From an uncultured Gemmatimonadaceae bacterium (lineage in GTDB: Bacteria; Gemmatimonadota; Gemmatimonadetes; Gemmatimonadales; Gemmatimonadaceae), in the NCBI GenBank assembly GCA_964438255.1, contig CAYTKA010000010.1, positions 787 to 64,786 on the forward strand: a stretch of DNA of 64,000 nt. Direction: 5' to 3'. Shown one piece after another: positions 13,633 to 64,000 of this stretch; the stretch's first letter is position 1; every line of letters begins with the position of its first letter. Under the pieces are notes generated by a model that searched no databases, was not told the DNA's origin, and saw only the letters and a list, made by a program, of their open reading frames with translations. The position numbers were made by a program, and so were the translations under genes.

Positions 13633-14549
13633 CGGCGTTCATCGTCCGGCGCCTGCTCCTCTCCATCCCGACGCTGTTCGGCGTGCTCGTCGTGGCTTTT
13701 CTGCTGCTGTACGTGGCACCCGGCGATCCGGTGCAGGCCATGGTGGGCGAGCGCGCCGACTCCACGACGATCGCCCGGCTGCGGCAGGAGCTCCGCCTCG
13801 ACGATCCGCTCTACGTGCAGTTCGGGCACTACGTCGGCGGCATCGTGAAGGGCGACCTCGGAAGATCGTATATCACCAACCGGCCTATCCTGCGCGACAT
13901 CCGCGAGCGCTTCCCCAAGACGCTGCAGCTCGCCGGCGCCGCCATGCTGCTCGCCACGATCTGCGGCGTGACGCTCGGCATCTTCAGCGCGAGGCATCCG
14001 GGCGGCACAATAGACCGGTTTGGGCTCGCGGTGGCGTATCTCGGGATCAGCTTTCCCGTCTATTGGGTCGGCCTGCTGCTCATCCTGCTCTTCGCCATGA
14101 CGCTGCGCTGGCTCCCCCCTTCGGGATTCGGCAGCGCACGGTATCTCGTGCTTCCCGCGCTCGCGCTCGGGATGCGCTCCATCGCGTTCCTCGCCCGCAT
14201 GACGCGCTCCGCCATGCTCGACTCGCTCGGCGCCGACTACGTGCGTACCGCACGGGCCAAAGGGCTGCGCGAGAGCGTCGTCGTCGGACGGCACGCGCTG
14301 CGCAACGCGCTCATCCCGATCATCACCGTGCTCGGCCTCGACTTCGGCGCGTATCTCACGGGGAGCATCCTCACCGAGACGATCTTCTCCTGGCCCGGGC
14401 TCGGACGTTACGTCGTGAACGCGATCGCGCGGCGCGATCTCCCCGCCATCCAGGGGTCGGTGCTCTTTCTCAGTGCGGTGTTCGTCCTCGTGAACCTGAT
14501 CACCGACGTCGCCTACGCGAAGGCCGATCCGCGGGTCACCTACGCGTGA
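13629..14549 (+). CDS. ABC transporter permease (DppB/OppB-like)
   Basis: 306 aa, six hydrophobic segments, and the typical N-terminus MTAFIVRRLLLSIPTLFGV. ATGA overlap with the SBP gene. Confidence 0.85.
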   Translation: MTAFIVRRLLLSIPTLFGVLVVAFLLLYVAPGDPVQAMVGERADSTTIARLRQELRLDDPLYVQFGHYVGGIVKGDLGRSYITNRPILRDIRERFPKTLQLAGAAMLLATICGVTLGIFSARHPGGTIDRFGLAVAYLGISFPVYWVGLLLILLFAMTLRWLPPSGFGSARYLVLPALALGMRSIAFLARMTRSAMLDSLGADYVRTARAKGLRESVVVGRHALRNALIPIITVLGLDFGAYLTGSILTETIFSWPGLGRYVVNAIARRDLPAIQGSVLFLSAVFVLVNLITDVAYAKADPRVTYA

Positions 14550-50755: not shown

Positions 50756-53700
50756 ATGTCCGATTCTCCTGCATTCTCCCCGCATCGCTCGTCCTCTCCC
50801 TACCTCCGTGCGCTGGACGAGCGCGTGCTCGTCTACGACGGGGCAATGGGGACGAACATTCAGCGGCACAATCCCACCGCCGAGGACTACGGGGGCAAGT
50901 CGCTCGAGGGGTGCAACGACAACCTCGTCCTCACGCGGCCGGACATCATCCAGTCCATCCACGAGTCCTTCCTCGCCGTGGGCTGCGACGTGGTGGAGAC
51001 CTGTACCTTCCAGAGCACGCCGCACCGTCTGCGCGAGTGGGGGATCGAGGACAAGGCTCGCGACCTCAACGTTCGAGCAGCGCAGCTCGCCCGCGCGGCG
51101 TGCGACAAATACGCCACCCCCGACCGCCCGCGCTTCGTCGCCGGCTCGATCGGCCCGACGGGAATGCTCCCGTCGAGCAGCGATCCCGCCCTGTCCAACA
51201 TCACCTTCGATGCGCTCGCCGAAACGTACTACCTCCAGGCCAAGTACCTGGCTGAGGGAGGAGTGGACGTGCTGCTCGTCGAGACGGCGCAGGACATCCT
51301 CGAGGTCAAGGCGGCGCTCACCGGCTTCGAGCGGCTGTTCGCCGAGCTGGGACGTCGCATCCCGGTGCAGGCGCAGGTCACGCTCGACGTGAGCGGCCGC
51401 ATGCTGCTCGGCACCGACATCGCCAGCGCGCTCACCACGCTCGAGGCGATGCGCGTGGACGTCGTGGGGCTCAACTGCTCCACCGGCCCCGAGCACATGC
51501 GCGAGCCCGTGCGCTTCCTCACCGAGCACGCGTCGCTCCCCATCTCGGTGATCCCGAACGCCGGCCTTCCCCTCAACACCGGCACGGGTGAGGCGATCTA
51601 TCCCCTCGAGCCGAAGCCGATGGCGGGGATGCTGCGTGACTTCGTCGAGGAGTTCGGCGTGCGCATCGTCGGCGGCTGCTGCGGCACGACGCCGGAGCAC
51701 CTGCGGGAGATCGTGTCCGCCGTGCGCACCGCCGATCCGGTGGAGCGGCCCGCACACGCGCGCGAGGCAACGGTGTCGTCGGCCATGCGCGCGACGTCGA
51801 TCCGGCAGGAGCCGGCGCCGCTCCTCGTCGGCGAGCGCGTGAACGCGCAGGGGTCGCGCAAGGTGAAGCGGCTGCTGCTCGCCGACGACTACGAGGGGAT
51901 CCTCGAGGTCGCGCGCGAGCAGCAGGAGTCGGGTGCGCACGTGCTCGACATCTGCGTCGCCGTCACCGAGCGCGCCGACGAAGCCGACCAGATGGCGAAG
52001 CTGGTCAAGCTGCTCTCGATGAGCGTCGAGACACCGCTCATGATCGACTCCACCGAGGCGCCGGTCATCGAGGCCGCGCTGGAGCACGTGCCGGGGCGCG
52101 CGATCATCAACTCCATCAACATGGAGAATGGCCGCAAGCGCATCGACTCCGTGGTGCCGATCGCCAAGAAGCACGGCGCCGCGCTCGTGGCGCTGACGAT
52201 CGATCCGATCGGCATGGCCAAGACACGCGAGCGCAAGCTCGAGGTGGCGAAGAAGATCTACGACATCGTCGTCGGCGAGTACGGCCTGAAGCCGGAAGAT
52301 CTCGTCTACGACGCGCTCACCTTCACCCTCGCCACGGGCGACGCGGAGTGGGTGGACAGCGCGCACGAGACGATCGAGGGGATCCGCCTGATCAAGCGCG
52401 AGCTGCCCGGTGTCTTCACCATCCTCGGGGTCTCCAACGTGAGCTTCGGGCTCGATCCCGACGCGCGGCACGTGCTCAACTCCGTCTTCCTGCATCACTG
52501 CGTGGCAGCGGGGCTCGACGCGGCCATCGTCAACCCGGCGCACATCAAGCCGTACGCCGAGATCAGCGCCGAAGAGCGTACGCTGGCGGACGATCTCGTG
52601 TTCAATCGTCGGCCGGATGCGCTCCAGCGGTTCATCGACGCCTTCGCCAGCAAGGGCGGGAGCAGCGCCGTCGAGGAGAAGGAAGATCCGACGGCCGGCA
52701 TGACACCGGAGCAGAAAGTCCACTGGATGGTCCTTCATCGCAAGAAGGAAGGGATCGAGGACGCGCTCGATACCGCCGGCGTGCAGGAGAATCCGGTGCG
52801 CGTGCTCAACGACGTACTGCTCCCCGCCATGAAGGAGGTCGGCGACAAGTTCGGCGCCGGTGAGCTCATCCTTCCCTTCGTGCTCCAGAGCGCCGAGGTG
52901 ATGAAGAAGGCGGTGAAGCACCTCGAGCAGTTCCTGGAGAAGGCGGAGGGCTACACGAAGGGCAAGGTCGTGCTGGCCACCGTGTATGGAGACGTGCACG
53001 ACATCGGCAAGTCGCTCGTCAACACGATCCTCAGCAACAACGGCTACACCGTGTTCGACCTCGGCAAGCAGGTGCCGGTGAACACGATCATCGAGAAGGC
53101 GCTCGAGGTGGAGGCCGACGCGATCGGACTGTCCGCGCTGCTCGTGAGCACGAGCAAGCAGATGCCGCTCTGCGTGCAGGAGCTCGACAAGCGCGGCATT
53201 CAGATCCCCGTGCTCATCGGCGGCGCGGCGATCAACCGCCGTTTCGGCCGGCGCGCGATGTTCGTCGACGGCGAGCGCCCGTACGACTCCGGCGTCTTCT
53301 ACTGCAAGGACGCGTTCGAGGGGCTGGAGACGATGGACTCGCTTCAGGACAGCCCCGAGCGGCGGCGGGACGCCATCGCGCGCCTCATCGACGAGGCGCG
53401 CAAGGACGTCTTCCTGCACGGCAACGTCGGCAAGGACGTGAAGGCGGGGATCGCCGGCGGCGAGCGGAGCGACGTGACGCACGATCACGCCATTCCGTCA
53501 GCGCCGTTCTTCGGCACGCGCGTGCTGAACGACATCCCGCTGAACGAGGTGTTCGACCTGCTCGACCTCGACGAGCTGTATCGCCTCCAGTGGGGCGGCC
53601 GCGGCTCGGGGCCGGAGTTCGAGCGCATGGTGCGCGAGGAATTCGAGCCCACGCTCGAGCGGCTGAAGAAGGAAGCGCTGGCCGAAGGGTGGGTGACGCC

Positions 53701-54283
53701 GCGTGCCGTGTACGGCTACTTCCCGGCGCAGAGCGTCGGCAACGAGCTGGTCGTCTACGACCCTGACGCGTACGCGAAGGACGGCTCGCTCGTGGAGAAG
53801 ACGCGCTTCCATTTCCCGAGACAGGAAGGGCGCGAGCGGCTGTGCATCGCCGATTACTTCCGCTCGTCCACCAGCGGCGACGTCGACGTCGTCGGCTTCC
53901 AGATCGTGACGGTGGGCGACGAGGCGACGCGTCGCTTCGAGGCGTTGCAGGCGGCGGGCGAGTACACGGAGGCGTTCTACTCCCATGGCCTTGCTGTCGA
54001 GACGGCGGAGGCGGTCGCCGAGTGGCTGCACCGCCACGCACGTCGCGAGCTCGGGATTCCCGGCGGGCGCGGCAAGCGCTACTCGTGGGGGTACGGCGCC
54101 TGCCCCGACCTCGAGGACCACGCGCAGCTCTTCACGCTGCTCCCCGCCGAGGCGGCGCTGGGCATGGAGCTGACGTCGGCGTTCCAGCTCATTCCGGAGC
54201 AGAGCACGGCGGCGATCATCGTGCATCACCCGCAGGCCAAGTATTACGCGGTTCGTACGGGCGGGGAGGCAGTGCTGTCGTGA
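50756..54283 (+). CDS. metH: Cobalamin-dependent methionine synthase
   Basis: 1175 aa. Hcy-binding domain (VYDGAMGTNIQ, GGCCGTTPEH), pterin-binding domain, B12 domain (GDVHDIGK) and AdoMet-activation domain (RYSWGYGACPDL). Confidence 0.95.
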   Translation: MSDSPAFSPHRSSSPYLRALDERVLVYDGAMGTNIQRHNPTAEDYGGKSLEGCNDNLVLTRPDIIQSIHESFLAVGCDVVETCTFQSTPHRLREWGIEDKARDLNVRAAQLARAACDKYATPDRPRFVAGSIGPTGMLPSSSDPALSNITFDALAETYYLQAKYLAEGGVDVLLVETAQDILEVKAALTGFERLFAELGRRIPVQAQVTLDVSGRMLLGTDIASALTTLEAMRVDVVGLNCSTGPEHMREPVRFLTEHASLPISVIPNAGLPLNTGTGEAIYPLEPKPMAGMLRDFVEEFGVRIVGGCCGTTPEHLREIVSAVRTADPVERPAHAREATVSSAMRATSIRQEPAPLLVGERVNAQGSRKVKRLLLADDYEGILEVAREQQESGAHVLDICVAVTERADEADQMAKLVKLLSMSVETPLMIDSTEAPVIEAALEHVPGRAIINSINMENGRKRIDSVVPIAKKHGAALVALTIDPIGMAKTRERKLEVAKKIYDIVVGEYGLKPEDLVYDALTFTLATGDAEWVDSAHETIEGIRLIKRELPGVFTILGVSNVSFGLDPDARHVLNSVFLHHCVAAGLDAAIVNPAHIKPYAEISAEERTLADDLVFNRRPDALQRFIDAFASKGGSSAVEEKEDPTAGMTPEQKVHWMVLHRKKEGIEDALDTAGVQENPVRVLNDVLLPAMKEVGDKFGAGELILPFVLQSAEVMKKAVKHLEQFLEKAEGYTKGKVVLATVYGDVHDIGKSLVNTILSNNGYTVFDLGKQVPVNTIIEKALEVEADAIGLSALLVSTSKQMPLCVQELDKRGIQIPVLIGGAAINRRFGRRAMFVDGERPYDSGVFYCKDAFEGLETMDSLQDSPERRRDAIARLIDEARKDVFLHGNVGKDVKAGIAGGERSDVTHDHAIPSAPFFGTRVLNDIPLNEVFDLLDLDELYRLQWGGRGSGPEFERMVREEFEPTLERLKKEALAEGWVTPRAVYGYFPAQSVGNELVVYDPDAYAKDGSLVEKTRFHFPRQEGRERLCIADYFRSSTSGDVDVVGFQIVTVGDEATRRFEALQAAGEYTEAFYSHGLAVETAEAVAEWLHRHARRELGIPGGRGKRYSWGYGACPDLEDHAQLFTLLPAEAALGMELTSAFQLIPEQSTAAIIVHHPQAKYYAVRTGGEAVLS

Positions 54284-54338: not shown

Positions 54339-54549
54339 GGCCGTAACAATGCACCGACGCATCACGCACGCCGATGGTACTGCGGTACTCGGGTACTGCG
54401 TACTTCGTACGGCGACTCGGCGCAGCTATTCTCTCGACGCGCGCGGCGCCAAATGCGGCATGAGACCGCCGGCTCTATCGGGAGGCGTGCAAGCCCGGTG
54501 TGGTTTTCCGCCGGTCACCGCACCGGAGCATCGGTGCATTGTTACGGCC
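54339..54549. repeat. Perfect 19-bp inverted repeat (core of a longer imperfect palindrome) in the metH / yitJ-like intergenic region
   Basis: GGCCGTAACAATGCACCGA (54339-54357) and TCGGTGCATTGTTACGGCC (54531-54549), 173 nt apart. Flanking segments cgtgga/tccacg, cctcga/tcgagg and ggta/tacc extend the pairing to about 54310-54585. Confidence 0.9.
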
Positions 54550-54649
54550 AGTCTGTGAGTTCCACGTACTCGAGGACTGCCTACCAATTGCTCGCCGTTC
54601 ACTCCCCGCCAGTCCAGGTATCTGGCACCGCAAGGATGCGGAGCATTCA

Positions 54650-56575
54650 ATGAGTACAGCAACACTGCATCGCCTGACCGACCCCGACTCGCTCGTCCTG
54701 TTCGACGGTGCGATGGGAACGATGCTGTACGCGAAGGGCATCTTCATCAATCAGTGCTACGACGAGCTGAATCTCCGCTCCCCCGATCTCGTGCGCGACG
54801 TGCATCGCCAGTACGTGGCGGCGGGCGCGGAGGTGCTGGAGACGAACAGCTTCGGGGCGAATCGGCTCAAGCTCGCGCCCTTCGGGCTCGCCGCGCAGAC
54901 GCGCGAGATCAATCGCCGCGCCGCGGAGCTGGCGCGCGAGGCAGCCGACGAGGGGCACGACGTGCTCGTCGCCGGGGCCGTCGGACCGCTCGGCGTGCGA
55001 CTCGAGCCCTATGGCCCCACGTCGGCGGCGGAGGCGCGCGAGATCTTCCGCGAGCAGATCGAAGGGCTCCGGGAAGGGGGCGCGGATCTGTTCATCCTCG
55101 AGACCTTCGGTGACCTGCACGAGATCGGGCAGGCGATCGTTGCGGCGCGCGAGGTGGATGCGTCGATTCCCGTCGTGGCGCAGATGACGATCGGCGCGGA
55201 CGGGCTCACACCATACGGTGCGACGCCGGAAGACGTGGCGCGCGCACTCGACCGCTTCGGCGCCGACGTCATCGGTCTCAACTGCTCCGTCGGCCCGCAG
55301 GCGATCCTCGACGCGATCGAGAAGATGGCCCCGGTGACGAAGAAGAAGCTCTCGGCGCAGCCGAATGCCGGCATGCCGCGCGACGTGAGTGGTCGCCGCA
55401 TGTACATGGCGAGCCCCGAGTACATGGCGACGTACGCGCGGCACCTCGTGCAGGCGGGCGCGAAGATCGTGGGTGGCTGCTGCGGCACGACGCCGGAGCA
55501 CATTCACGCCATGGTCGAAGGGGTGCGCCCGCTCAGCCCACGCTTCGCGCGCGTCGGCGGTGCGGCGCACGCCGGCGCGACGGCACCGCCGCGCGACACC
55601 AGGCGCGTGCCGGACGTGGAGGCGGTGCCGCTCGCCCAGCGCTCGCGCTGGGGTGCAAAGATCGCCGCCGGAGCGTTCGTCACGAGCGTGGAGATCGTGC
55701 CGCCGCGCGGGGTGGACGCGACGCGCATGCTCGCCGACGTCGGACAGCTCAAGCGCGCCGGCGTGGACGCCGTGAACGTCCCCGACGGCCCGCGCGCGCA
55801 GAGCCGCATGGGCGCCCTGCTCACGTCGCTGCTGGTCGAGCAGCGCGTCGGCATCGAGACGGTGACGCACTACGCGTGTCGCGACCGCAACCTGCTCGGC
55901 ATGCTGAGCGACCTGCTGGGCGCATCGGCCGTCGGCCTGCGCAACCTGCTGCTCATCACCGGCGACCCCCCGAAGATGGGGCCGTACCCGAGTGCCACGG
56001 CGGTGTTCGACATCGACGCGATCGGGCTCACGAACCTCGTACGCAACCTCAATCACGGCCGCGACCCCGGCGACAACGCCATCGGCGCGCCGACGCAGTT
56101 CGTGATCGGCGTCGGGGTGAACCCCGCCCCGATCGATCTGGAGCACGAGCTGAAGCGGTTCGCGTGGAAGGTCGAAGCCGGTGCGGAGTTCGCCGTCACG
56201 CAGCCCGTGTTCGACGCGGCGCAGCTCGAGAACTTCCTGCGTCGCACGGAGGGCAATCGCATCCCGATCGTCGCCGGCATCTGGCCGCTCGTCAGCGTGC
56301 GCAACGCCGAGTTCCTCGCCAATGAGGTGCCGGGCGTGAGCGTGCCCGAGGGCGTGATCACGCGCATGCGAAAGGCGGGCGAGCGCTCGAAGGAACATGC
56401 GGTGGCCGAGGGGATCGCCATCGCGCGCGAGATGCTCGAGCGCGTGCGCGCGAGCGTGCAGGGCGTGCAGGTGTCGGCGCCCTTCGGCAAAGTCGAGCTG
56501 GCGCTCGAGGTGTTCGGCGACACCGTCGCCCCCGATCCGATCGCTGCCAGCGCGTCCGCGCCTGCTCCCGCGTGA
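54650..56575 (+). CDS. Bifunctional homocysteine S-methyltransferase / 5,10-methylenetetrahydrofolate reductase (YitJ-like)
   Basis: ATG 54650 after GGAG. N-terminal LFDGAMGTMLY...GGCCGTTPEHI (Hcy-binding domain) and a C-terminal MTHFR domain (VTSVEIVPPRG...LLLITGDPP). Confidence 0.9.
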   Translation: MSTATLHRLTDPDSLVLFDGAMGTMLYAKGIFINQCYDELNLRSPDLVRDVHRQYVAAGAEVLETNSFGANRLKLAPFGLAAQTREINRRAAELAREAADEGHDVLVAGAVGPLGVRLEPYGPTSAAEAREIFREQIEGLREGGADLFILETFGDLHEIGQAIVAAREVDASIPVVAQMTIGADGLTPYGATPEDVARALDRFGADVIGLNCSVGPQAILDAIEKMAPVTKKKLSAQPNAGMPRDVSGRRMYMASPEYMATYARHLVQAGAKIVGGCCGTTPEHIHAMVEGVRPLSPRFARVGGAAHAGATAPPRDTRRVPDVEAVPLAQRSRWGAKIAAGAFVTSVEIVPPRGVDATRMLADVGQLKRAGVDAVNVPDGPRAQSRMGALLTSLLVEQRVGIETVTHYACRDRNLLGMLSDLLGASAVGLRNLLLITGDPPKMGPYPSATAVFDIDAIGLTNLVRNLNHGRDPGDNAIGAPTQFVIGVGVNPAPIDLEHELKRFAWKVEAGAEFAVTQPVFDAAQLENFLRRTEGNRIPIVAGIWPLVSVRNAEFLANEVPGVSVPEGVITRMRKAGERSKEHAVAEGIAIAREMLERVRASVQGVQVSAPFGKVELALEVFGDTVAPDPIAASASAPAPA

Positions 56576-56618
56576 GCGCGCGCCGGAGTTTGTACGCCGA
56601 CGCGACGAAAGGTCGCGC

Positions 56619-56647
56619 TTGACGGCTCGCCGGGAACGCCATAGACT
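56619..56647 (+). promoter_or_regulatory. Sigma-70-like promoter candidate TTGACG-N17-TAGACT
   Basis: TTGACG 56619-56624, a 17-nt spacer, and TAGACT 56642-56647, about 20 nt before leader motif copy B. Confidence 0.4.
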
Positions 56648-56667
56648 CGCTTGCAGAACCGAACGCC

Positions 56668-56757
56668 GTGGTGATTTGCCGCCGTTGCCGCCACGTTAAA
56701 CAAGATGCTAACACGCGACTCGCCCGGCGGCGCTCCCGACCGGGCGTTCTTCGTTTC
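56668..56757 (+). promoter_or_regulatory. Candidate riboswitch/attenuator leader (motif copy B) with intrinsic terminator, heading the sulfur-assimilation operon
   Basis: Hairpin CGUGGU...GCCACG with the loop starting GAUUU, tail GUUAA...UGCUAA..CGCGA, then terminator CGCCCGG (56721-56727) / CCGGGCG (56740-56746) plus UUCUUCGUUUC. Confidence 0.55.
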
Positions 56758-56874
56758 ACCACGCGCCACCGTTCCATCACGCCAGTGTCCACCATCGCTC
56801 CGACCACCGCCGCCGTCCTCGCCACGATCGCCCTCGCGATCGTGCGGAATGGTGCGTGTGCGTGTCGTGACGGG

Positions 56875-56946
56875 ATGTGTGCGTGCGCCTGTATCGGCGC
56901 GCACGCGACGACACGACGACGGTCGGGGAGGGGACGGCGCGGCTGA
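56875..56946 (+). CDS. Candidate Cys-rich leader peptide (MCACACIGAHATTRRRSGRGRRG; the frame is open upstream to GTG 56785, adding ...NGACACRDG)
   Basis: Frame read directly: ggt gcg tgt gcg tgt cgt gac ggg atg tgt gcg tgc gcc tgt. That is 5 Cys in 12 codons, 4 of them TGT. Only a weak SD. Lies between two terminators upstream of Cys/sulfur genes. Confidence 0.3.
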   Translation: MCACACIGAHATTRRRSGRGRRG

Positions 56947-56986
56947 CACCGCACGAGTTCCACCACCGAAGGGAAGAAGCTCACCC

Positions 56987-57013
56987 GGCCGCTCGTTCGA
57001 GCGGCCTTTTTTT
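56987..57013 (+). terminator. Strong intrinsic terminator 38 nt upstream of the rhodanese start
   Basis: GGCCGCTCG (56987-56995), a short loop, CGAGCGGCC (56998-57006) and T7 (57007-57013). Confidence 0.8.
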
Positions 57014-57051
57014 GTCCCATCACGCGGCCCACCACCGCAGGAGAGCCGAAC

Positions 57052-57939
57052 ATGCCTACCATCGCAGTCGACCCGACGCCCGCCGCGATCGCCGACAAGG
57101 GCTACGTCCACCCCGACGCCCTCGTCTCGACATCGTGGCTCGCGGAGCACCTCGACGATCCGTCCGTGCGGATTCTCGAGAGCGACGAGGACGTGCTCCT
57201 CTACGACCTCGGCCACATCCCGAACAGCCAGAAGATCGACTGGCATGAGGACCTCAACGACCCCGTGCAGCGCGACTACGTGAGCCGCAAAGCGTTCGAG
57301 GCGCTCGTGCGCCGGCTCGGCATCGACGAGTCCACCACCGTCGTGTTCTACGGCGACAAGAACAACTGGTGGGCGACGTACGCCTTCTGGGTCTTCCGCC
57401 TCTTCCACTTCCCGAACGCGCGGATCCTCGACGGCGGGCGGACGAAGTGGGAGGAGGAGGGGCGCCCCTTCGTCACCGAGACGCCGACCTTCCGCGCCAC
57501 GACCTACCGCGCCCCCGAGCGCGACGACCGCGTCATCCGCGCCTTCCGCGACGAGGTGCTCGCGCACAGCGCGGCGCGCCGCCCGCTGATCGATGTGCGG
57601 TCACCCGACGAGTACACCGGCAAGAAGACGCACATGCCGGAGTATCCGCAGGAGGGCGTGCTGCGCGGCGGCCACATCCCCGGCGCGAAGAGCGTCCCAT
57701 GGGCGCGCGCCGCAAATCCCGACGGGACGTTCAAGAGCGCACCCGAGCTCCGCGCCATCTACGAGAGCGAGGCCGGCCTCCGTACCGGCGACGACGTCGT
57801 GGCGTACTGCCGCATCGGCGAGCGCTCGTCGCACACCTGGTTCGTGCTCACGTATCTCCTCGGCTACGAGAAGGTGCGCAACTACGACGGGAGCTGGACG
57901 GAGTGGGGCAACGCGGTGCGCCTCCCGATCGAGAAGTGA
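57052..57939 (+). CDS. Thiosulfate/3-mercaptopyruvate sulfurtransferase (tandem rhodanese, SseA/CysA2-like)
   Basis: 295 aa with active-site loop [12 protein letters not shown] and AGGAGA as SD. Confidence 0.9.
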
Positions 57940-57961
57940 CGACGCGCCGGGTGATCGCCGC

Positions 57962-58801
57962 ATGAGCCGCCGCGCCGTGGTGAGCGTCCCGGCCTCCTGG
58001 GTGAGCCGGGGGTGGGGGACGGCGCTCGGGGTGACCCTCGAGCGCTGGCTGACCGCGTCGTTCACGCTGACCGGGGGCACCTTCGCGCCGGTGGTCGAGG
58101 GCGCGGGGACGCTGCGCGACCGGCCTGCGCCGCCGGAGGGGGACCCTCTGCTCCGCGGCTTCCACGCGGCGTGCACGCACGGGCGCCGTCCGCTGCCGCG
58201 CGGACTCCTCGTGCGCGCGAGCTCGCACATTCCGCTGCGGCGAGGGCTGGGCGCATCCGCGGCGGCGGTCGTGGCGGGCGTGGTGGCGGCGAACGCGCTG
58301 TACGGGCTCGCCCTCGGCGACCACGACGTCGCCGGCGTGGCGGCGCGCGTACTTCGCGGGCCGGCACAGGGGACGCACACGGCGCTCGCCACATGGGGAG
58401 GCACCGTGGTGGCGCACGCCCACGCGAGCGATCCGCTCCACGTCACGCCGATCGACGTGCATCCGGCGCTGGCGCTCGTCATCGCCGTCCCCGAATGCGT
58501 CGCGGCATGGACGTCGGCGAACGTCCGCACAGAGGACGCCGTGCGTCGCGTGATGCGCGCGGCGCTCGCCGCGGGCGCGGTAGGCGCCGTGCCGGGCCGC
58601 GACGGCGCGACGATCGTCGCCATCGGCGCGCACGACGTCGTCGAGACGGTCCGCGCGGCGATGGTGGCCGCGTGGCGTGACGCCGGCGTCGCGGCCGAGG
58701 TGTCGCTCAACCCGTCGCGCGTGGCCGGCCACCGCGCGCGAGTGCAGCACGTCTGCGACGATCACTCCGCCGCGCCAGCCGCAGCGCACCCGGTCTCCTG
58801 A
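57962..58801 (+). CDS. Divergent GHMP-kinase family protein (homoserine-kinase-like)
   Basis: ATG 57962. VSVPASWVSRGWGTALG resembles the ThrB N-terminus. GHMP motif II is IPLRRGLGASAAAVVAG. Motif III is degenerate (VPGRDGATIVAIG). Confidence 0.5.
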   Translation: MSRRAVVSVPASWVSRGWGTALGVTLERWLTASFTLTGGTFAPVVEGAGTLRDRPAPPEGDPLLRGFHAACTHGRRPLPRGLLVRASSHIPLRRGLGASAAAVVAGVVAANALYGLALGDHDVAGVAARVLRGPAQGTHTALATWGGTVVAHAHASDPLHVTPIDVHPALALVIAVPECVAAWTSANVRTEDAVRRVMRAALAAGAVGAVPGRDGATIVAIGAHDVVETVRAAMVAAWRDAGVAAEVSLNPSRVAGHRARVQHVCDDHSAAPAAAHPVS

Positions 58802-58994
58802 GCCCACGACCCACGATGACGCCGATTCCCTCGCTCGACGCCCGCTACACACGCCGCATGCCGGCGCGCGCGTCGATCAATCCGATTCCCCATCCCTGTC
58901 CGCCGGCGTGTGCACGCCCGACACGGGCGGGAGCGATGCCGGACCGATGTCCGTAGGCGACGCGCGACGCGCGCACCACGAACGATCGAATACC

Positions 58995-59024
58995 GGGCCC
59001 GCTCTCGCCGCCGAGAGCGGGCCC
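58995..59024 (+). promoter_or_regulatory. Perfect 13-bp stem-loop upstream of cysC (attenuator, processing or stabiliser element)
   Basis: GGGCCCGCTCTCG (58995-59007), loop CCGC, and CGAGAGCGGGCCC (59012-59024). The tail GTCGCTCTTCC is only weakly U-rich. Confidence 0.5.
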
Positions 59025-59073
59025 GTCGCTCTTCCGGATTCCATGCCACCTTCACCCACTGGAGCACCAGGTC

Positions 59074-59670
59074 ATGACCACGGCACTCTCGTCCGTCCAC
59101 CTCCGTCACGAACCGCGCGCGCGCCCGCTCGGCTTCACCGTCTGGCTCACCGGGCTCTCCGGCGCGGGCAAGTCCACCATCGCCCGCGCGCTCGCTGGGC
59201 GCCTGCGCGCCGAGGGGCTCGCGACCGAGCTGCTCGACGGCGACGAGGTGCGCGAGCACCTCTCCCAGGGACTCGGCTTCTCGCGCGCCGACCGCGACAC
59301 GAACGTCCGCCGCATCGCGTACGTGGCGCAGCTCCTCACGCGCAACGGCGTCGCCGTCGTCATCGCGGCGATCTCGCCCTACGCCGAGGCGCGCGCTGCG
59401 GCGCGGAAGACGGTCGGCGAGTTCGTCGAGGTCTTCGTGAACGCGTCGGTCGAGACGTGCATCGCGCGCGATCCGAAGGGACTCTACTCAAAGGCGATGG
59501 CGGGGGTGATCACCGCCTTCACCGGGATCTCCGATCCGTACGAGGCCCCCACCGCCCCCGACGTGGAGATCGACACCGAGCGCGAGAGCGTGGACGGCGC
59601 GGTGGCGCGGCTGCTCGGCCTCCTCGGCGAGCGCGGATACCTCGCGCGCCCGGAGTCCCGCCGTGTCTAA
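59074..59670 (+). CDS. cysC: Adenylylsulfate (APS) kinase
   Basis: 198 aa with WLTGLSGAGKSTIA and LDGDEVREHLSQGLGFSRADRDTNVRR. Confidence 0.9.
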   Translation: MTTALSSVHLRHEPRARPLGFTVWLTGLSGAGKSTIARALAGRLRAEGLATELLDGDEVREHLSQGLGFSRADRDTNVRRIAYVAQLLTRNGVAVVIAAISPYAEARAAARKTVGEFVEVFVNASVETCIARDPKGLYSKAMAGVITAFTGISDPYEAPTAPDVEIDTERESVDGAVARLLGLLGERGYLARPESRRV

Positions 59671-60370
59671 CCTCGCGGCCCTCGCCACGAGCGAGGTGGC
59701 GCTGCGCGAGGCCGCGCCCGAGGCGATCCTCGCCTGGGCGGTGCGGACCTTCGGCGAGCGGCTCGTCCTCACGCTCAGCTTTGGCGGTCCGGGCGTCGCG
59801 CTGGCACACATGCTCCGCCAGCTCGAGGCGCGCGTGCCCGTCGTGTTCCTCGACACGCGCATGCTCTTCCCGGAGACGTACGCCTTCCGGGACGAGTTCG
59901 CCGCGCGCTACGGGCTCACTGTGCTGACCGCCAGCCCAGAGGAGGATCCCGGGCCGCTGTACCGGACCGATCCCGACGCGTGCTGCCGCATCCGCAAGGT
60001 CGAGCCGATGCGCCGCGTGCTCGCGCGGTACGACGCGTGGGTGAGCGCGCTCCGGCGCGACCAGAGCGCGGCGCGTGCCGGCACGGAGGTCGTCGAGCAC
60101 GACGTGGTCGACGGCCGGCCGCTGGTGCGCATCCACCCGCTCGCGTTCTGGAGCCGCGCGCAGGTGTGGGACTATCTCGTGCGCCACGGCGTGCCGTACC
60201 ACCCGCTGCTGGACCGCGGCTACACGAGCCTCGGCTGCTGGCCGTGCACGCGATCGACCGCGGCCGGCGAGGACGAGCGCGCGGGACGCTGGAGCGGCCG
60301 CGCGAAGACCGAGTGCGGGCTGCACACCTTCAGCCGGTCCGCGGTGCGGCACGGCACGGAGCGCGGCTGA
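59663..60370 (+). CDS. cysH: Adenosine 5'-phosphosulfate / phosphoadenosine phosphosulfate reductase (Fe-S type)
   Basis: GTG 59663 overlaps cysC by 8 nt. Cys pairs [10 protein letters not shown] and LGCWPCT, and the C-terminal KTECGLH. Confidence 0.9.
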
Positions 60371-61119
60371 TGTCGCCGCCGCTCGCCGCCGCCGGCCTCG
60401 TCGTCGGCTTCATGATCGGCCTGAGTGGCGTCGGGAGCGGCGCGCTCATGGCGCCGCTACTGCTGCTCTTCGGGCTACAGCCCGCGGTCGTCGTTGGGAG
60501 CGATCTGCTCTTCGGGCTGCTCACCAAGATCGTCGGCGTCGGGCCGCATCTCGCGCGGCGCTCGATCGCGTGGCCCTGGGTCGCGCTGCTCGCCGCCGGC
60601 AGCCTGCCCGGCGTCGTGGTCGGCGCGCGCGTCGTGCACCACTTCGCCGCCGCGCCGCAGACGATCCGCGCCTGGATCGCTGCACTGCTCGTCGTCGCGC
60701 CCGTCGTCGCCATTGCCGCCGATCATCTCCGGGACGGCGCCGCGCCGCGGCGGCGCCCGCGGCGGTGCGCCGTCGTCGCGATCGGTGCGACCATCGGCAT
60801 CACCGTCGGCGCCACGTCGGTCGGCAGCGGCAGCCTCGTCGACGTCGCTCTCATGCTCTTCTCCCCGCTCGCCGGCGCGGAGCTCGTGGGTACCGGCATC
60901 GCGCACGCCGTGCTGCTCACCGCCGTCGGCGCCGTGGCGCACTGGAGCCTCGGTACGATCGATCTCCCCCTCGTCTCCAACCTGCTCGCCGGCTCGATCC
61001 CCGGCGTGCTTCTCGGCGGCTGGCTCACTGGACGGATCGCCCCGCGGCCGCTGCGCTGGGGCGTCTCCGGGCTCGTGCTCGCAAGCGCGCTCACCCTTCT
61101 CCTCCAATCCAGACCATGA
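60370..61119 (+). CDS. TauE/SafE (DUF81) family anion permease
   Basis: ATG 60370 shares one nt with the cysH stop. 249 aa, about 8 TM segments, [15 protein letters not shown] and [10 protein letters not shown] repeats. Confidence 0.8.
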
Positions 61120-62318
61120 CGTCCCTCACCGCCGCACCGCCCGCCGCCCTTCGCTCGCGCGCTCGCGCCGAGCCGCCGCTCATCGCCCCGCACGGCGGCA
61201 TCCTCGTCGATCGCGTGCTCGACACCGCCGCCGCTGCGGAGATGCGCGAGCGGGCGGACCGCTGGCCGTCGGTCATACTCTCGCCCGCCGCGGCGTCCGA
61301 TCTCGAGATGATCGCCACCGGCGCCCTCAGCCCGCTCACCGGCTTCCTCGACAGGCCGGACTACGCGTCCGTGCTCGACGAGCTGCGGCTCGCGAACGGG
61401 CTGCCGTGGACGATCCCCGTCACGCTTCGCGTGGACGCCGTGCCCGCCGCCGACCGCGTCGCGCTGCGAGACGCCGACGGCAAGCTCCTCGGCGTGCTCG
61501 AGCTCCGCAACGCGTATCCCGCCGATCGCGAGCGCGAGGCGCGCCTGGTGTACGGTACGACCGACCCGGCGCATCCCGGCGTGCAGCGGCTGCTCGCCGC
61601 CGGCGCGTACGCGCTGGCGGGGGACGTGTGGCTCGTGCGCGCACGACCGGCGGCGTTCCCCGCCCTCGCACTCACGCCGCGCGAAACGCGCCGCGCCTTC
61701 GCCGAACGCGGCTGGCGCACCATCGTCGGCTTCCAGACGCGCAACCCCGTGCACCGCGCGCACGAGTACATCCAGAAGGCGGCGCTCGAGACGGTGGACG
61801 GGTTGCTGCTGCATCCTCTCGTCGGCGAGACGAAGGGGGACGACGTGCCCGCCGCCGTCCGCGTGCGCAGCTACGAGGTGCTGCTCGAGCACTATTATCC
61901 GGGCGATCGCGTGCTGCTCGCCGCGTTCCCCGCTGCGATGCGCTACGCCGGCCCGCGCGAGGCCGTCTTCCACGCCATCGCGCGCCGGAACTACGGGTGC
62001 ACGCACTTCATCGTCGGGCGCGACCACGCCGGCGTGGGCGCGTACTACGGCACCTACGACGCGCAGCGCATCTTCGACCGGTTCGACCCCGCCGAGCTGG
62101 GAATCCAGCCGGTGCGCTTCGACCACACCTTCTGGTGCCGCGCCTGCGGCGGCATGGCGTCGGCCAAGACGTGCCCGCATCGCGACGAGGCGCACGTCAC
62201 CCTCTCGGGCACGAGGGTGCGCGAGCTGCTGCGCGCGGGCGTGCTGCCACCGCCGGAGTTCAGCCGCCCCGAGGTCGCGCGCGTGCTCGTGGCCGGACTG
62301 CGGGAGCGTGTCGCATGA
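61116..62318 (+). CDS. sat: Sulfate adenylyltransferase (ATP sulfurylase, monomeric Sat type)
   Basis: ATG 61116 (ATGA overlap). [13 protein letters not shown] and [11 protein letters not shown]. Confidence 0.9.
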
Positions 62319-64000
62319 GCGCCGAGCCCACCGCCACCACCACGACGGCGTCGAGTACCGCCGACGTGTCCGCGCCGCCCGCCCCGTCCGTGAAGGAAAC
62401 CGCCGCGCAGCGCGTCGAGCGGATCAAGCGCGAGCGCGCGCCATGGTCCATCATGGACGACATTCGCCGCTACGCGCGCGAGGGGTTCGCATCCATTCCC
62501 AGCGACGACCTCACCGTGCGCTTTCGCGCCTGGGGGCTGTACACCCAGGGCGACGGAGGCGGCACGCGTGGCGAGGAGATGCCGTTCTTCATGATGCGCG
62601 TTCGGACGCCGAACGGCGTGCTGACCTCGGAAATGGTCCGCACGATCGCCGACCTCTCCGACCGGTACGCGCGGAGCAGCATCGACATCACCAACCGGCA
62701 GAACTTCCAGCTCCACTGGCTGCGCATCGAGGACATCCCGGCGGTGTGGGACGCGCTCGCGGGCGTCGGCTGGGGAAGCCAGGGTGCGTGCGGCGACAAC
62801 ACCCGCACCGTCACCGGCTGTCCGCTCGCCGGCGTGGACCACGAGGCGCTGATCGACGCCTCGCCGATCGCCATCGCCGTGGACCGATTTCTCAACGGCA
62901 ATCCCGACTTCGCCAACCTGCCGCGCAAGTTCAAGATCACGATCACCGGGTGCGCGCACTGGTGCACCTATCCCGAGATCAACGACATCGGCGTCACCGC
63001 AGTCCGCCGCGACGACGGCGTCGTCGGGTTCCACGTGCGGGTCGGCGGCGGGCTCTCCACGCGGCCGCATCTCGCGCGGCTGCTGCCCGCCTTCGTGCTG
63101 CCAGCACAGGTGCCGGCGGTCGTCACGGCGATCGCGGCGATCTTCCGCGACTCCGACGAGCTGCGCGTCAACCGCGCGAAGGCGCGGATGAAGTTCCTTT
63201 TCATCAATCACGGCGCCACGCCGGAGTCGTTCCTCGCCGAGGTGGAGCGGCGCATCGGCTACCGCCTGGCACCTGCGGCGCCGGAGACGCCGCCCGAAGG
63301 ACCGTACCGCGACCACATCGGGGCGCACCCGCAGCGGCAGCCCGGATTGCACTATGTCGGGTTCTCCGTTGTCTCGGGACGCATCACGCCGGAGCAGTTG
63401 CGCCGCACAGCGGCGCTCGCCGAGCGCTACGGCGACGGCACGATGCGCCTCTCGGCGATGCAGAACCTCCTCGTGCTCAACGTGCCCGACGCGCAGGTGC
63501 CGGCGCTCCTCGCCGATGCCGAGCTCGCGGGGCTCTCGTTCGGCGCGTCGCCGTTCCAGCGCGGCACGGCCTCGTGCACCGGCCGCGAGTACTGCAAGCT
63601 GGCGATCACGGAGACGAAGGCGTTCAGCATCCGGCTCGCGCGCGAGCTCGAGGAGCGGCTGCCCGGCTTCGGGGAGGCGATCAAGCTGCACGTCACCGGG
63701 TGCCCCAACGCCTGCGGCCAGCACTGGATCGCCGACGTCGGGCTCCAGGGCGTGCTGCTCGACCGCGACGGCGCGCAGGTCGAGGGGTTCGACGTCTTCG
63801 TCGGCGGCGGGCTGGGCGCGCACGGCGGTTTCGCACGGCGCATCGGCTTCCGCGCGCCGGCGGACGATGTCCCGGACGTGCTCGAGCGGCTGTTCGAGCG
63901 CTTCGTCGCCTCGCGCGCGCCGGATGAGATCTTCCGCGCATGGGCGGCGCGCGTCGGCGACGCGGCGGTCAAGGGGATCCTCGCCGAGGGTGCTGCGCGG
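62315..64000 (+). CDS. sir: Ferredoxin-dependent sulfite reductase (NirA/Sir family); 3' end beyond the right edge
   Basis: Not in the ORF track (no stop in the window). My translation from ATG 62315 (ATGA overlap with sat) gives [10 protein letters not shown]...[15 protein letters not shown]...[15 protein letters not shown]...[11 protein letters not shown]...[14 protein letters not shown] and later [18 protein letters not shown], in the same frame. Confidence 0.85.

Follow-up and report, generated by a model that had tools for sequence, protein, structure and literature searches.

In a Gemmatimonadaceae bacterium, a sulfate-assimilation operon is preceded by a SAM-II riboswitch, and between the two we found a conserved cysteine-rich mini-gene followed by a switchable terminator. 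The element occupies positions 56785-57013 of the stretch of DNA that was analysed (64,000 nucleotides, hereafter the window). We think it probable that it acts as a ribosome-mediated transcription attenuator, which would report the supply of charged tRNA-Cys and would be the second of two serial attenuators in the leader. The case is built on the anatomy of the leader, on the conservation of the reading frame, the Cys enrichment, the antiterminator strand and the terminator, and on the predicted alternative folds. The core of the original prediction, a leader peptide with Cys codons and a terminator/antiterminator switch placed after a riboswitch, is thus supported by conservation in orthologous leaders. 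The features of the region are as follows.

56619-56647, + strand: promoter-like site TTGACG-17-TAGACT, the sole such site in the leader (1 found versus 0.0 expected in shuffles)
56658-56728, + strand: SAM-II riboswitch aptamer (RF00521), a full-length match
56721-56757, + strand: terminator 1, a CGCCCGG/CCGGGCG hairpin (56721-56746) plus TTCTTCGTTTC (-22 kcal/mol, z = -2.6)
56785-56946, + strand: leader short ORF of 53 codons, whose GTG 56785 aligns with the ATG of its homologues; homologous ORFs stand in eight other distinct leaders
56857-56892, + strand: candidate regulatory codon cluster and putative ribosome stalling site, whose 12 codons include five Cys (4 TGT, 1 TGC) and one Met, from codon counts and the phase of TGY triplets
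56920-56927, + strand: predicted antiterminator 5' strand (region 2), CGGTCGGG, matching the nearly invariant GCGGCCGGG of the homologues
56939-56952, + strand: hairpin H, GCGG-CTGACA-CCGC, whose loop holds the stop codon TGA (56944-56946) of the short ORF
56984-56991, + strand: predicted antiterminator 3' strand (region 3), CCCGGCCG, overlapping the 5' arm of terminator 2
56987-57013, + strand: terminator 2 (the attenuator), with an 8-bp GC stem, a GTTC loop and T7 (-17.6 kcal/mol, z = -5.2), with hardly any variation among the eight closest leaders
57040-57939, + strand: Shine-Dalgarno sequence GGAGAG (57040-57045) and rhodanese/thiosulfate sulfurtransferase gene (ATG 57052 to 57939), the first gene of the operon
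57940-64000, + strand: rest of the operon, from a GHMP-kinase-like gene onward, assigned by gene and family matches

Leader layout and the operon behind it

The promoter-like site probably drives the entire leader and the operon, and a homologous promoter (TTGACG..TAGACTCGCT) is also present in two of the homologous leaders, L172 and L177. The riboswitch-like element that had been suspected upstream of the short ORF was identified as a SAM-II aptamer, with a score of 38.8 bits for the RF00521 covariance model (gathering score 36) over model positions 1-79 of 79. Terminator 1, expected to end at about 56757, does end at 56757, and the 3' end of the aptamer match reaches into its hairpin, which is followed by a U-rich tail. 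In the SAM-free minimum-energy fold, the 5' side of the aptamer pairs with the 3' arm of the hairpin 56721-56746, and terminator 1 is predicted to be the expression platform of the riboswitch. The homologous leader L171 carries a SAM-II element at the homologous place (36.5 bits) and has also kept the stem of terminator 1. Since SAM-II with its own terminator lies upstream of the short ORF, the leader would hold two attenuators in series.

The proposal that a CysA2-type rhodanese heads the downstream operon was supported, and genes of the assimilatory sulfate-reduction pathway follow it. They include APS kinase (59074-59670), PAPS/APS reductase (59663-60370), then TauE/SafE, ATP sulfurylase (ending at 62318) and sulfite reductase (from 62315, running beyond the window). 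As the segment from terminator 2 to the rhodanese ATG holds no promoter-like site, expression of the operon depends on read-through.

A cysteine-rich short ORF and its homologues

As predicted, the frame is open from GTG 56785 to TGA 56944-56946; it extends upstream as far as GTG 56668, and the translation of the short ORF reads VSTIAPTTAAVLATIALAIVRNGACACRDGMCACACIGAHATTRRRSGRGRRG. The codon listing bore out the description of five Cys within 12 codons, four of them TGT, at 56857 (TGT), 56863 (TGT), 56878 (TGT), 56884 (TGC) and 56890 (TGT). TGT is indeed the rare Cys codon here, with TGC 45 : TGT 11 in the 15 clear genes of the window, where Cys makes up 0.65% of codons. The internal ATG at 56875 gives the 23-codon peptide MCACAC... 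that had been described, and offers an alternative start.

Some features of the short ORF count against our reading. Consecutive Cys codons are absent from it (ACACRDGMCACAC, with the pattern C-A-C and C-A-C-A-C), no Shine-Dalgarno sequence was found before it, and the hairpin over the Cys cluster (56855-56909), considered as an RNA polymerase pause hairpin, folded no better than shuffles (z = -0.97). The short ORF is not leaderless, its GTG lying 137 nt past the only -10-like hexamer. Given this distance, the GTG start and the missing Shine-Dalgarno sequence, initiation at GTG 56785 is only putative. In L176, a relative of this leader, and in L012 and L017, two unrelated leaders of Chloroflexota, an ATG lies 7 nt after the -10 hexamer, and these short ORFs are therefore probably leaderless.

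The density of Cys codons is by itself only moderately unusual when compared with chance. With all six frames counted, open 12-codon stretches with at least five Cys stand at four places in the 64 kb, and about 0.015 would be expected in the 476-nt leader. The other three stretches (at 13675, 62218 and 63081) are wrong-frame readings of genes for an ABC permease, ATP sulfurylase and sulfite reductase, respectively. The significance of the Cys density appears to come from its conservation in relatives.

The comparison set consisted of nine distinct leaders (the window and eight others) upstream of orthologous rhodanese genes, whose proteins are 70-83% identical. Conservation of the Cys-rich frame in orthologous leaders was a check named beforehand, and it came out in favour of the prediction. 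All eight other leaders keep an ATG-started ORF in the equivalent frame, through to the stop, and seven of them have 3-8 Cys codons (two in L171). The DNA of the short ORFs is 45-89% identical among the nine leaders, and 46-71% identical to that of the window. Runs of CC or CCC occur in seven of the eight homologues, L171 being the one without. Across the nine leaders, Cys takes 11.2% of the codons, compared with 0.65% in the genes of the window, and TGY triplets fall 48 times in the ORF frame versus 21 and 15 times in the other two phases (p = 1.6e-5), which contain 10 and 5 stop codons. Codon choice differs as well, with 30 TGT : 18 TGC in the leader family versus 11 : 45 in the genes, and an in-frame insertion of TGC distinguishes L177 from L172. 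The ORF has kept a length of 40-54 codons (30 in L085). The peptides are scarcely conserved beyond the Cys residues and a nucleotide-constrained RPG, and the number and spacing of Cys vary freely, from 2 to 8. A search of the leader peptides against Pfam and NCBIfam, with E up to 10, gave no family match, and the short ORF was not called by gene callers in any of the source assemblies. At the loci L178-L185 (rhodanese 78-81% identical), where the upstream regions are short or unrelated, no Cys leader was found, and the leader is thus not universal in the clade; the genes called downstream of rhodanese at these loci are OsmC only, or OsmC and a PALP-family gene.

Terminator, antiterminator and the proposed switch

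The textbook terminator reported at 56987-57013 with T7 was confirmed. Its arms GGCCGCTC/GAGCGGCC occupy 56987-57006, the T7 follows at 57007-57013, and none of 200 shuffles was as stable. A terminator hairpin and U-run lie between short ORF and gene in all nine leaders, and the module from region 2 to the terminator is the best conserved part of the leader. The nearly invariant GCGGCCGGG is complementary to the 5' arm of the terminator, and the RNAalifold consensus independently yielded the antiterminator helix 56920-56927/56984-56991. This helix is 95.8% paired across eight leaders versus at most 53% when the partner strand was slid. L085 has a different terminator, GACCCACC/GGTGGGTC, which matches its different region 2/3 pair, GGTCGGGG/CCCCGACC. 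Besides L085, the antiterminator helix shows one compensatory pair; true covariation is thin because the key helices are almost invariant in the close set, and this counts against our reading.

A different antiterminator had been proposed, in which GCGGCUG (56939-56945) pairs with CGGCCGC (56986-56992). This pairing exists; as a conserved antiterminator it was rejected, being 11-12 kcal/mol worse than the alternatives and reduced to only 3-6 consecutive pairs in homologues. We take the helix of 56920-56927 with 56984-56991 in its place. The segment 56939-56945 belongs instead to the 5' arm and loop of the separate conserved hairpin H. The stop codon lies within a hairpin loop in eight of the nine leaders, with seven different stem sequences, as judged from folds of the single sequences (MAFFT and RNAalifold did not align H). 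In E. coli trpL, too, the stop codon lies in a hairpin loop. Region 2 is located within the short ORF, and its end precedes the stop codon by 17 nt in the window and by 17-18 nt in seven of the nine leaders.

Searching the leader against Rfam with E up to 1 gave, beyond SAM-II, only BcKCsr2 (E = 0.86), which is terminator-driven noise. A covariance model of the region 2-to-terminator module, run on 164 sources (the window and 163 loci), found only the close group, with a weak match to L085, and no second copy in the window. The sequence family is thus narrow.

Folding the leader with and without a ribosome mask, as had been suggested, switched the predicted state in all nine leaders. The untranslated RNA folded to the terminator in nine of nine, and so did the RNA with a ribosome masked at the stop codon. 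When a ribosome was placed at the last Cys codon and only the RNA beyond it was folded, at a stage at which the terminator still lacks its 3' arm, the antiterminator formed, again in nine of nine. These folds agree with the predicted outcome for each ribosome position, termination at the stop codon and antitermination upon stalling at Cys; the strand that is freed or blocked, in contrast, is 56920-56927 and not 56939-56945. The two states differ by no more than 1-2 kcal/mol in seven of nine leaders. Another point against our reading is that the end of region 2, 17-18 nt from the stop, falls at the very edge of the footprint of a terminating ribosome and not inside it. Since region 2 only abuts a ribosome at the stop codon, the way in which termination would be favoured under Cys-replete conditions is only putative. 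No conserved region 1, that is, a strand of Cys codons pairing with region 2, was found in the main family, where the predicted partners differ between homologues. In the fold of the window, codons 5-7 (56798-56805) are the partner of region 2, and in the predicted fold of L085 the Cys codons themselves pair with region 2.

We infer from these features that the short ORF would be translated, that ribosomes would stall at its Cys codons, that co-transcriptional folding would be timed to suit the switch, and that the first stage would respond to SAM. Transcription would begin at the promoter-like site 56619-56647, and the SAM-II riboswitch with terminator 1 would present a first, SAM-dependent stop to the transcript. 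Next, ribosomes would translate the leader ORF of 53 codons. With plentiful Cys-tRNA, the ribosome would pass CGGUCGGG (56920-56927) and reach the stop codon in the loop of H, 17 nt further on. There it would melt H and occupy the base of the would-be antiterminator, and the terminator 56987-57013 would form and end transcription. When Cys-tRNA is scarce, the ribosome would stall within 56857-56892 and so stay at least 27 nt short of the strand 56920-56927. Left free, this strand would pair with 56984-56991 once that is made, removing the 5' arm of the terminator. RNA polymerase would then go on to transcribe rhodanese, APS kinase, PAPS reductase, TauE, ATP sulfurylase and sulfite reductase. 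Taken together, the two stages would most likely switch the operon on only if both SAM and charged cysteine-tRNA are low. If this model is true, changing CGGTCGGG to CGGAGCGG would abolish induction, and a compensatory change in 56984-56991 would restore it.

A purely RNA-based element, either a second riboswitch or a protein-binding leader, might instead control terminator 2 without translation, the Cys codons being a by-product of a UG-rich structured segment. The strong conservation of the region 2-to-terminator module would fit such an element, as would the missing Shine-Dalgarno sequence, the C-terminal RPG of the peptides, which is a mere reading of GCGGCCGGG, and the terminator state already reached by untranslated RNA. 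L171, which retains the RNA switch with only two Cys codons, also points this way and counts against our reading. We nevertheless regard this explanation as unlikely. The Cys-codon segment is poorly conserved in sequence and yet its frame stays open between the aligned ATG and a stop whose position is fixed, TGY enrichment is confined to one phase (48/21/15), the other phases hold 10 and 5 stops, and the difference between L177 and L172 is an in-frame TGC. Moreover, independent non-homologous leaders of the rhodanese gene in other phyla also encode Cys runs, and no matching Rfam family appeared even with E up to 1. The canonical hairpin and U-run in nine of nine leaders bear on a further alternative, to which we give slightly less weight still, namely a translational attenuator of the mycobacterial type, where a ribosome stalled in the Cys tract would act by exposing the ribosome-binding site of rhodanese, not by averting transcription termination. 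The GGAGAG at 57040-57045 lies 27 nt past the T-run and outside every predicted pairing, and the conserved alternative pairing uses the terminator arm, not the Shine-Dalgarno sequence; both argue against translational control. Cys-rich leaderless short ORFs of M. smegmatis do act in this way before a cysA2-containing operon (10.1101/834739), and the Cys short ORF of locus L113 ends 23 nt before the gene, with no terminator.

It appears improbable that the ORF encodes a functional small Cys-rich protein (a metal- or sulfur-binding or membrane peptide) and that terminator 2 merely ends its mRNA. The conserved length of 40-54 codons (30 in L085) and the hydrophobic N-terminal half in the window (TIAPTTAAVLATIALAIV) would suit a protein, whereas the peptide is barely conserved outside Cys and RPG, its Cys count and spacing are free from 2 to 8, Pfam and NCBIfam returned no match with E up to 10, and no gene caller reported the ORF in any source assembly. 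In addition, the 3' third of the ORF also serves as the antiterminator strand, and past terminator 2 there is no separate promoter-like site from which the operon could be transcribed. A chance open frame in GC-rich intergenic DNA beside an ordinary terminator might be imagined, since many long spurious ORFs occur in a window of 68.7% GC and the three other 5-Cys stretches are wrong-frame artefacts. This is very improbable and already contradicted by the frame, start, stop and Cys enrichment kept in eight further leaders at 46-71% identity. Ribosome-mediated attenuation by Cys codons hence remains our preferred reading.

Relation to known attenuators

To our knowledge, cysteine has long been without a classical leader-peptide attenuator, the tested cases being translational, leaderless and confined to mycobacteria. 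We also know of no CysB-type regulator annotated in this neighbourhood in the phyla considered here. Unrelated Cys-rich short ORFs with terminators were found before the same gene in other phyla, at 11 of 128 loci in the sense direction versus 0 of 128 in the antisense control. Look-alike Cys leaders occur in Chloroflexota and in one gammaproteobacterium. On a wider and distinctly more tentative view, about which we are somewhat more doubtful than convinced, the leader would be a two-sensor RNA logic gate in series (SAM-II and a Cys, possibly Cys plus Met, attenuator) that gates a complete sulfate-assimilation operon. The Cys module would then belong to an undescribed set before rhodanese-led sulfur operons, arising repeatedly across Gemmatimonadota, Chloroflexota and Gammaproteobacteria, a 'Cys ribulon' extending well beyond Actinobacteria.

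If true, a terminator-based Cys attenuator in Gemmatimonadota would make ribosomal sensing of Cys-tRNA a general and repeatedly invented control of sulfur assimilation, and the look-alikes in Chloroflexota and the gammaproteobacterium point toward such repeated invention. The serial arrangement of SAM-II and a leader peptide would be a natural gate with two inputs, one read by a riboswitch and the other by a ribosome sensor, and would offer synthetic biology a compact part. It would also provide a simple annotation rule for uncalled short ORFs in metagenome-assembled genomes.

The closest known parallel is found in mycobacteria, where Cys-codon short ORFs were experimentally shown to sense Cys. 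This group comprises the polycysteine leaderless short ORFs Ms5788A/Rv0815A and five others, for which two or more Cys codons in a row were the criterion (Canestrari et al., 2020; 10.1101/834739). The original prediction had rightly pointed to such attenuators, including one with CysA2; the case is Ms5788A-Ms5788-cysA2 of M. smegmatis (10.1101/834739). Both systems have a Cys-rich upstream short ORF, ribosome stalling (predicted for the window) and cysteine or sulfur operons, one with CysA2 (10.1101/834739). In contrast, the mycobacterial case that was studied is translational, with the Cys tract pairing with the Shine-Dalgarno region and no terminator, whereas the window has a terminator/antiterminator switch. 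The ORF of the window is not leaderless, its Cys codons are interspersed rather than consecutive and lie mid-ORF rather than C-terminally; it shares no sequence homology with the mycobacterial ORFs and comes from a different phylum (Gemmatimonadota). Cys leader peptides have further been predicted in Actinobacteria, for the cys operon of Mycobacterium and P. acnes and for cbs of B. longum (Seliverstov et al., 2005; PMC1262725). These are likewise short ORFs with Cys codons upstream of cysteine genes; theirs, however, stand in runs and lack a conserved terminator hairpin, Rho dependence having been proposed, whereas the window has a conserved textbook terminator. The uORFC-8-2 motif upstream of cysS in Rhodobacterales, a predicted ribosome-mediated attenuator (Brewer et al., 2021; PMC8632094), resembles our leader in its conserved Cys codons within a uORF followed by an intrinsic terminator. 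It differs in having only two tandem Cys codons (at about positions 14-15), mostly UGC, and two stems of unrelated sequence and structure, and it controls a tRNA synthetase gene in Alphaproteobacteria rather than a biosynthesis operon; the window is not a member of uORFC-8-2.

With the classical attenuators (trpL, hisL, thrL, ilv and leu of Proteobacteria; trp and ilvB of Actinobacteria, PMC1262725), the leader shares a short ORF with regulatory codons and a terminator before the first structural gene, with an antiterminator competing for the terminator's 5' arm, and the terminator as default fold of the untranslated RNA. Unlike in these, the regulatory codons are Cys and are located outside the strand pairing with region 2; region 2 itself precedes the stop, within the ORF, instead of following closely after it, and the stop is held by a separate hairpin. 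Tandem riboswitches (SAM-II/SAM-V and SAM-II doublets; PMC9481103) also place two sensors in one leader, and share with ours a first stage of SAM-II with its own terminator; the terms uORF, attenuat- and ribosome-mediated are absent from the text of that review. The Salmonella mgtA leader combines an Mg2+ riboswitch with the Pro-codon short ORF mgtL, in which interspersed, non-consecutive regulatory codons do work (PMC6460261). The second stage proposed here differs from both, as it is a predicted ribosome-mediated attenuator with its own terminator, is no second aptamer and stands apart from the riboswitch. In summary, the leader of the window appears to be a new variant among the Cys leader peptides known from mycobacteria, where they act on translation, and from cysS of Rhodobacterales.

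The leader and the operon behind it

Our analysis supported the leader-peptide interpretation that the original prediction had given for 56785-57013, but with its antiterminator corrected. The proposed attenuator lies in an intergenic leader of 476 nt, in a window of 68.7% G+C, and its surroundings are as follows.

54500-56575: homocysteine S-methyltransferase and MTHFR domain fusion gene, directly upstream of the leader
56619-56647: promoter-like site TTGACG-17-TAGACT, the sole such site in 56400-57200
56658-56728: match to a SAM-II aptamer
56721-56746: hairpin of terminator 1, CGCCCGG/CCGGGCG, directly after the aptamer, with tail TTCTTCGTTTC
56785-56946: short ORF, with its Cys cluster at 56857-56892
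56939-56952: hairpin H, GCGG-CUGACA-CCGC
56987-57013: terminator 2, the terminator of the proposed attenuator
57052-57939: rhodanese/thiosulfate sulfurtransferase gene, directly downstream of the leader
3' of the rhodanese gene: GHMP-kinase-like gene
59074-59670: APS kinase gene
59663-60370: PAPS/APS reductase gene
between the PAPS/APS reductase and ATP sulfurylase genes: TauE/SafE permease gene
ending at 62318: ATP sulfurylase gene
from 62315: sulfite reductase gene

With the rhodanese, APS kinase, PAPS/APS reductase, ATP sulfurylase and sulfite reductase genes downstream, the leader thus heads a complete assimilatory sulfate-reduction operon. No promoter-like site was found between terminator 2 and the rhodanese ATG in the search of 56400-57200. 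The nearest named relatives of the rhodanese are proteins of Gemmatimonadaceae metagenome-assembled genomes. On the other side, the fusion gene is directly preceded by a 1175-aa ORF (50756-54283), which we take to be a putative metH; no riboswitch was found ahead of either gene.

The element upstream of the short ORF is, by its full-length match to Rfam SAM_alpha (RF00521; 38.8 bits, gathering score 36), a predicted SAM-II riboswitch. In the ligand-free minimum-energy fold, the 5' side of the aptamer stem pairs with the 3' arm of the 56721-56746 hairpin. This pairing is a plausible antiterminator, in which case SAM binding would favour termination.

The Cys-rich frame and its homologues

Re-reading of the sequence bore out the open frame from GTG 56785 to TGA 56946 and its peptide, the internal ATG at 56875, and the 8-bp GC hairpin with T7 at 56987-57013, for which we calculated a folding energy of -17.6 kcal/mol (z = -5.2; 0 of 200 shuffles equally good). 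The 12-codon stretch 56857-56892 does hold five Cys codons, of which four are TGT, while the window genes use 45 TGC to 11 TGT and Cys makes up 0.7% of their codons. Taken alone, this density is only moderately unusual, as six-frame translation of the 64 kb yielded four 12-codon windows with five Cys, that of the leader included. The other three (13675, 62218 and 63081, + strand) were set aside as out-of-frame readings of genes, namely those for ATP sulfurylase, sulfite reductase and an ABC permease. No Shine-Dalgarno sequence was found ahead of the short ORF, whose start codon in the window is GTG, and ATG 56875 could be an alternative start. A hairpin over the Cys cluster was no more stable than shuffled sequences.

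We then compared the leader with 160 genomic and metagenomic rhodanese loci, together with contigs carrying the closest proteins. The same architecture was present in eight other distinct leaders (L163, L175, L172, L177, L176, L174, L171 and L085), in the order ATG, ORF of 30-54 codons, Cys cluster, region 2 (the 5' strand of the proposed antiterminator), small hairpin, terminator, and rhodanese Shine-Dalgarno sequence and ATG. Their ATG aligns with GTG 56785 of the window. Region 2 hardly varies (GCGGCCGGG; in the window, CGGTCGGGG), and the terminator reads CCGGCCGCTC-loop-GAGCGGCC plus a T-run. Leader peptides include MTRPSSALAAISGQLAAARVRACAMACCCGAMNVRCCACACSDTHWRPGTRLAP (L175), MTSAHRNHALAAAALATGQAAACCCVCRMEACACMCAVAYPHTLRPGLRQRG (L177), MTTSARRGNVLTTSALDTAMVAACVCPCCAPAMCLCMARSTPTQRPGPRIRV (L176) and MTCAPSMHMPCCCDRCMRRSGQRHVRWSSP (L085). 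DNA identity of the short ORFs is 45-89% among homologues and 46-71% to that of the window.

Cys accounts for 11.2% of leader codons versus 0.65% in genes, and TGY triplets are distributed 48/21/15 over the three phases of the leader ORFs (p = 1.6e-5). The rare-codon usage noted in the original prediction extends to the whole family, with TGT 30 : TGC 18 versus 11 : 45 in genes (p = 9e-6), and L177 and L172 are separated by an in-frame TGC insertion. The two other phases contain 10 and 5 stop codons. Together these features suggest that selection has acted on a Cys-rich frame that is translated.

The genes 5' of the leader vary by locus (aconitase, a toxin-antitoxin pair, a sigma/anti-sigma pair and others), so the leader travels with the rhodanese operon. 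Some close relatives, L178-L185, lack a leader of this kind; the genes called after the rhodanese there were OsmC alone, or OsmC plus a PALP-family gene. L171 is an exception in that it has two Cys codons only but keeps the RNA switch, and its sensor may be in decay or have taken on another purpose. Its SAM-II aptamer, antiterminator, hairpin H and terminator are all present (2728-2892), and its operon differs: rhodanese, pantoate transferase-like, GHMP kinase, ThiS and ThiF/rhodanese.

Compared with window 56605-56800, L172 (2625-2745) and L177 (2560-2680) have the promoter of the window (TTGACG..TAGACTCGCT) and share with it the T-rich motif TTTCCGTTTCAC. In place of the SAM-II aptamer and terminator 1 of the window and L171, these two have nothing more than a 13-nt hairpin, GCCGCCTCGCGGC, and in sequence the riboswitch looks like a module gained or lost among leaders. 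In L163 (4883-4959) and L174 (6503-6574), a SAM-II riboswitch lies outside the rhodanese leader, further downstream, before an Abhydrolase_1 gene that is presumably metX-like; in L163 a Cys_Met_Meta_PP gene, presumably metY-like, follows. A T-rich motif (TTCTTCGTTTC at 56747-56757 of the window; also TTTCCGTTTC and TTTCTTTG) is conserved in all homologues 15-35 nt before the short-ORF start, and the start codon behind it is without a Shine-Dalgarno sequence. The motif might serve as the tail of a terminator, as a -10-like element or as a landing site for ribosomal protein S1.

Internal Met codons were also counted in the window leader (cluster 56857-56892) and in L163, L175, L172, L177, L176, L174, L171 and L085. 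They make up 19 of 428 codons (4.4%; genes, 2.0%; p = 0.0025), and all but three of these 19 fall inside the Cys cluster +/- 3 codons. Met adjoins Cys also in unrelated Cys-rich leaders of other phyla (L012, L031, L087, L099 and L079). This enrichment could reflect a second sulfur-amino-acid sensor or internal start codons.

Predicted antiterminator, hairpin H and the proposed switch

GCGGCCGGG is fully complementary to CCCGGCCGC, a sequence overlapping the terminator's 5' arm. Region 2 of the window, CGGUCGGG (56920-56927), pairs with region 3, CCCGGCCG (56984-56991), with one U-G pair included. Across the eight closest leaders, 95.8% of cells in this helix are paired, compared with at most 53% when the partner strand was slid by 1-3 columns, and the helix is the RNAalifold consensus structure. 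Covariation is thin (one compensatory pair) because both strands are nearly invariant. The more distant L085 is an independent test of the pairing: it has GACCCACC/GGTGGGTC as terminator, and within the ORF a strand, GGTCGGGG, that matches CCCCGACC. The original prediction had instead paired 56939-56945 with 56986-56992. These 7 bp can form in the window, but as an antiterminator the pairing is 11-12 kcal/mol worse, and homologues retain only 3-6 consecutive pairs; the conserved strand is 56920-56927. The segment 56939-56945 is the 5' arm and loop of another conserved hairpin, H, which holds the stop codon in its apical loop in eight of nine leaders, with seven different stem sequences. Its lower stem is either GAGG/CCUC or GAAG/CUUC, and in seven of nine leaders the stop codon lies 17-18 nt beyond the end of region 2.

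The terminator formed in 9/9 leaders when untranslated RNA was folded, and again in 9/9 with a ribosome mask on the stop codon. With a ribosome at the last Cys codon and the 3' arm of the terminator not yet made, the antiterminator formed in 9/9. The final terminator and antiterminator states differ by 1-2 kcal/mol at most in 7/9 leaders. Folding of the main leader family revealed no conserved 'region 1' containing the Cys codons.

From the observed leader anatomy, its conservation and the predicted folds, we infer short-ORF translation, stalling, a steric effect of the terminating ribosome and the kinetics as follows. When Cys is replete, the ribosome would cross region 2 and arrive at the stop codon in the loop of hairpin H, where it would melt the hairpin and fill the inside of the would-be antiterminator up to its base, so that the local terminator hairpin would win. 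Such a terminating ribosome would do no more than abut region 2. When Cys is limited, the ribosome would wait in the Cys cluster (26 nt separate the last Cys codon from region 2 in the window, and 7-26 nt in the family as a whole), leaving region 2 and hairpin H free; helix 2:3 would pair once region 3 emerges, and RNA polymerase would read through. We consider ribosome-mediated Cys attenuation a likely mechanism for 56785-57013. With the SAM-II stage in front, expression would require both low SAM and low Cys-tRNA, a gate that fits an operon feeding cysteine and, via cysteine, methionine and SAM.

Candidate Cys leaders in other phyla, and known systems

A strict scan for short ORFs with at least three Cys per eight codons, followed by a hairpin and T-run and lying at most 450 nt upstream of the gene, matched 11/128 non-redundant rhodanese loci on the sense strand versus 0/128 in the antisense control. 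Matches outside the leader family are unrelated in sequence. They come from Anaerolineae and Chloroflexota (L012, L017, L031 and L044, with L017 from an earlier, looser scan), metagenome contigs (L087, L099 and L103) and a Cellvibrionaceae genome (L079, MMIIMICYCCCKN). This distribution suggests that Cys leaders were invented repeatedly before rhodanese-led sulfur operons. In L012 (365-548), L017 (2727-2899) and the family member L176 (657-905), the Cys-ORF ATG stands exactly 7 nt beyond the end of a promoter-like -10 hexamer, so that these mRNAs are probably leaderless. In this they resemble the mycobacterial short ORFs. Each of the three ORFs is followed by an intrinsic terminator. L012 and L017 have a second promoter-like site between terminator and gene.

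Cys-rich leader ORFs without terminators have been predicted upstream of actinobacterial cys operons (PMC1262725), and those of M. smegmatis are leaderless Cys-responsive translational attenuators, including Ms5788A before Ms5788-cysA2 (10.1101/834739). Rhodobacterales cysS has a predicted Cys-codon uORF with a terminator (PMC8632094). A review of tandem riboswitches lists tandem SAM-II arrangements, but the words uORF, attenuat- and ribosome-mediated are absent from it (PMC9481103). In the Salmonella mgtA leader, a Mg2+ riboswitch is accompanied by the Pro-codon short ORF mgtL, in which interspersed regulatory codons work (PMC6460261). Full-text searches returned nothing relevant on Cys leader peptides together with rhodanese. 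Given these known leaders and the empty search, we place the window element as a variant of known attenuators. As interpreted here, it represents a Cys leader attenuator of the terminator-based type in a phylum new for it, acting in series with a riboswitch. Its geometry is unusual, with region 2 lying within the ORF and a hairpin loop enclosing the stop codon.
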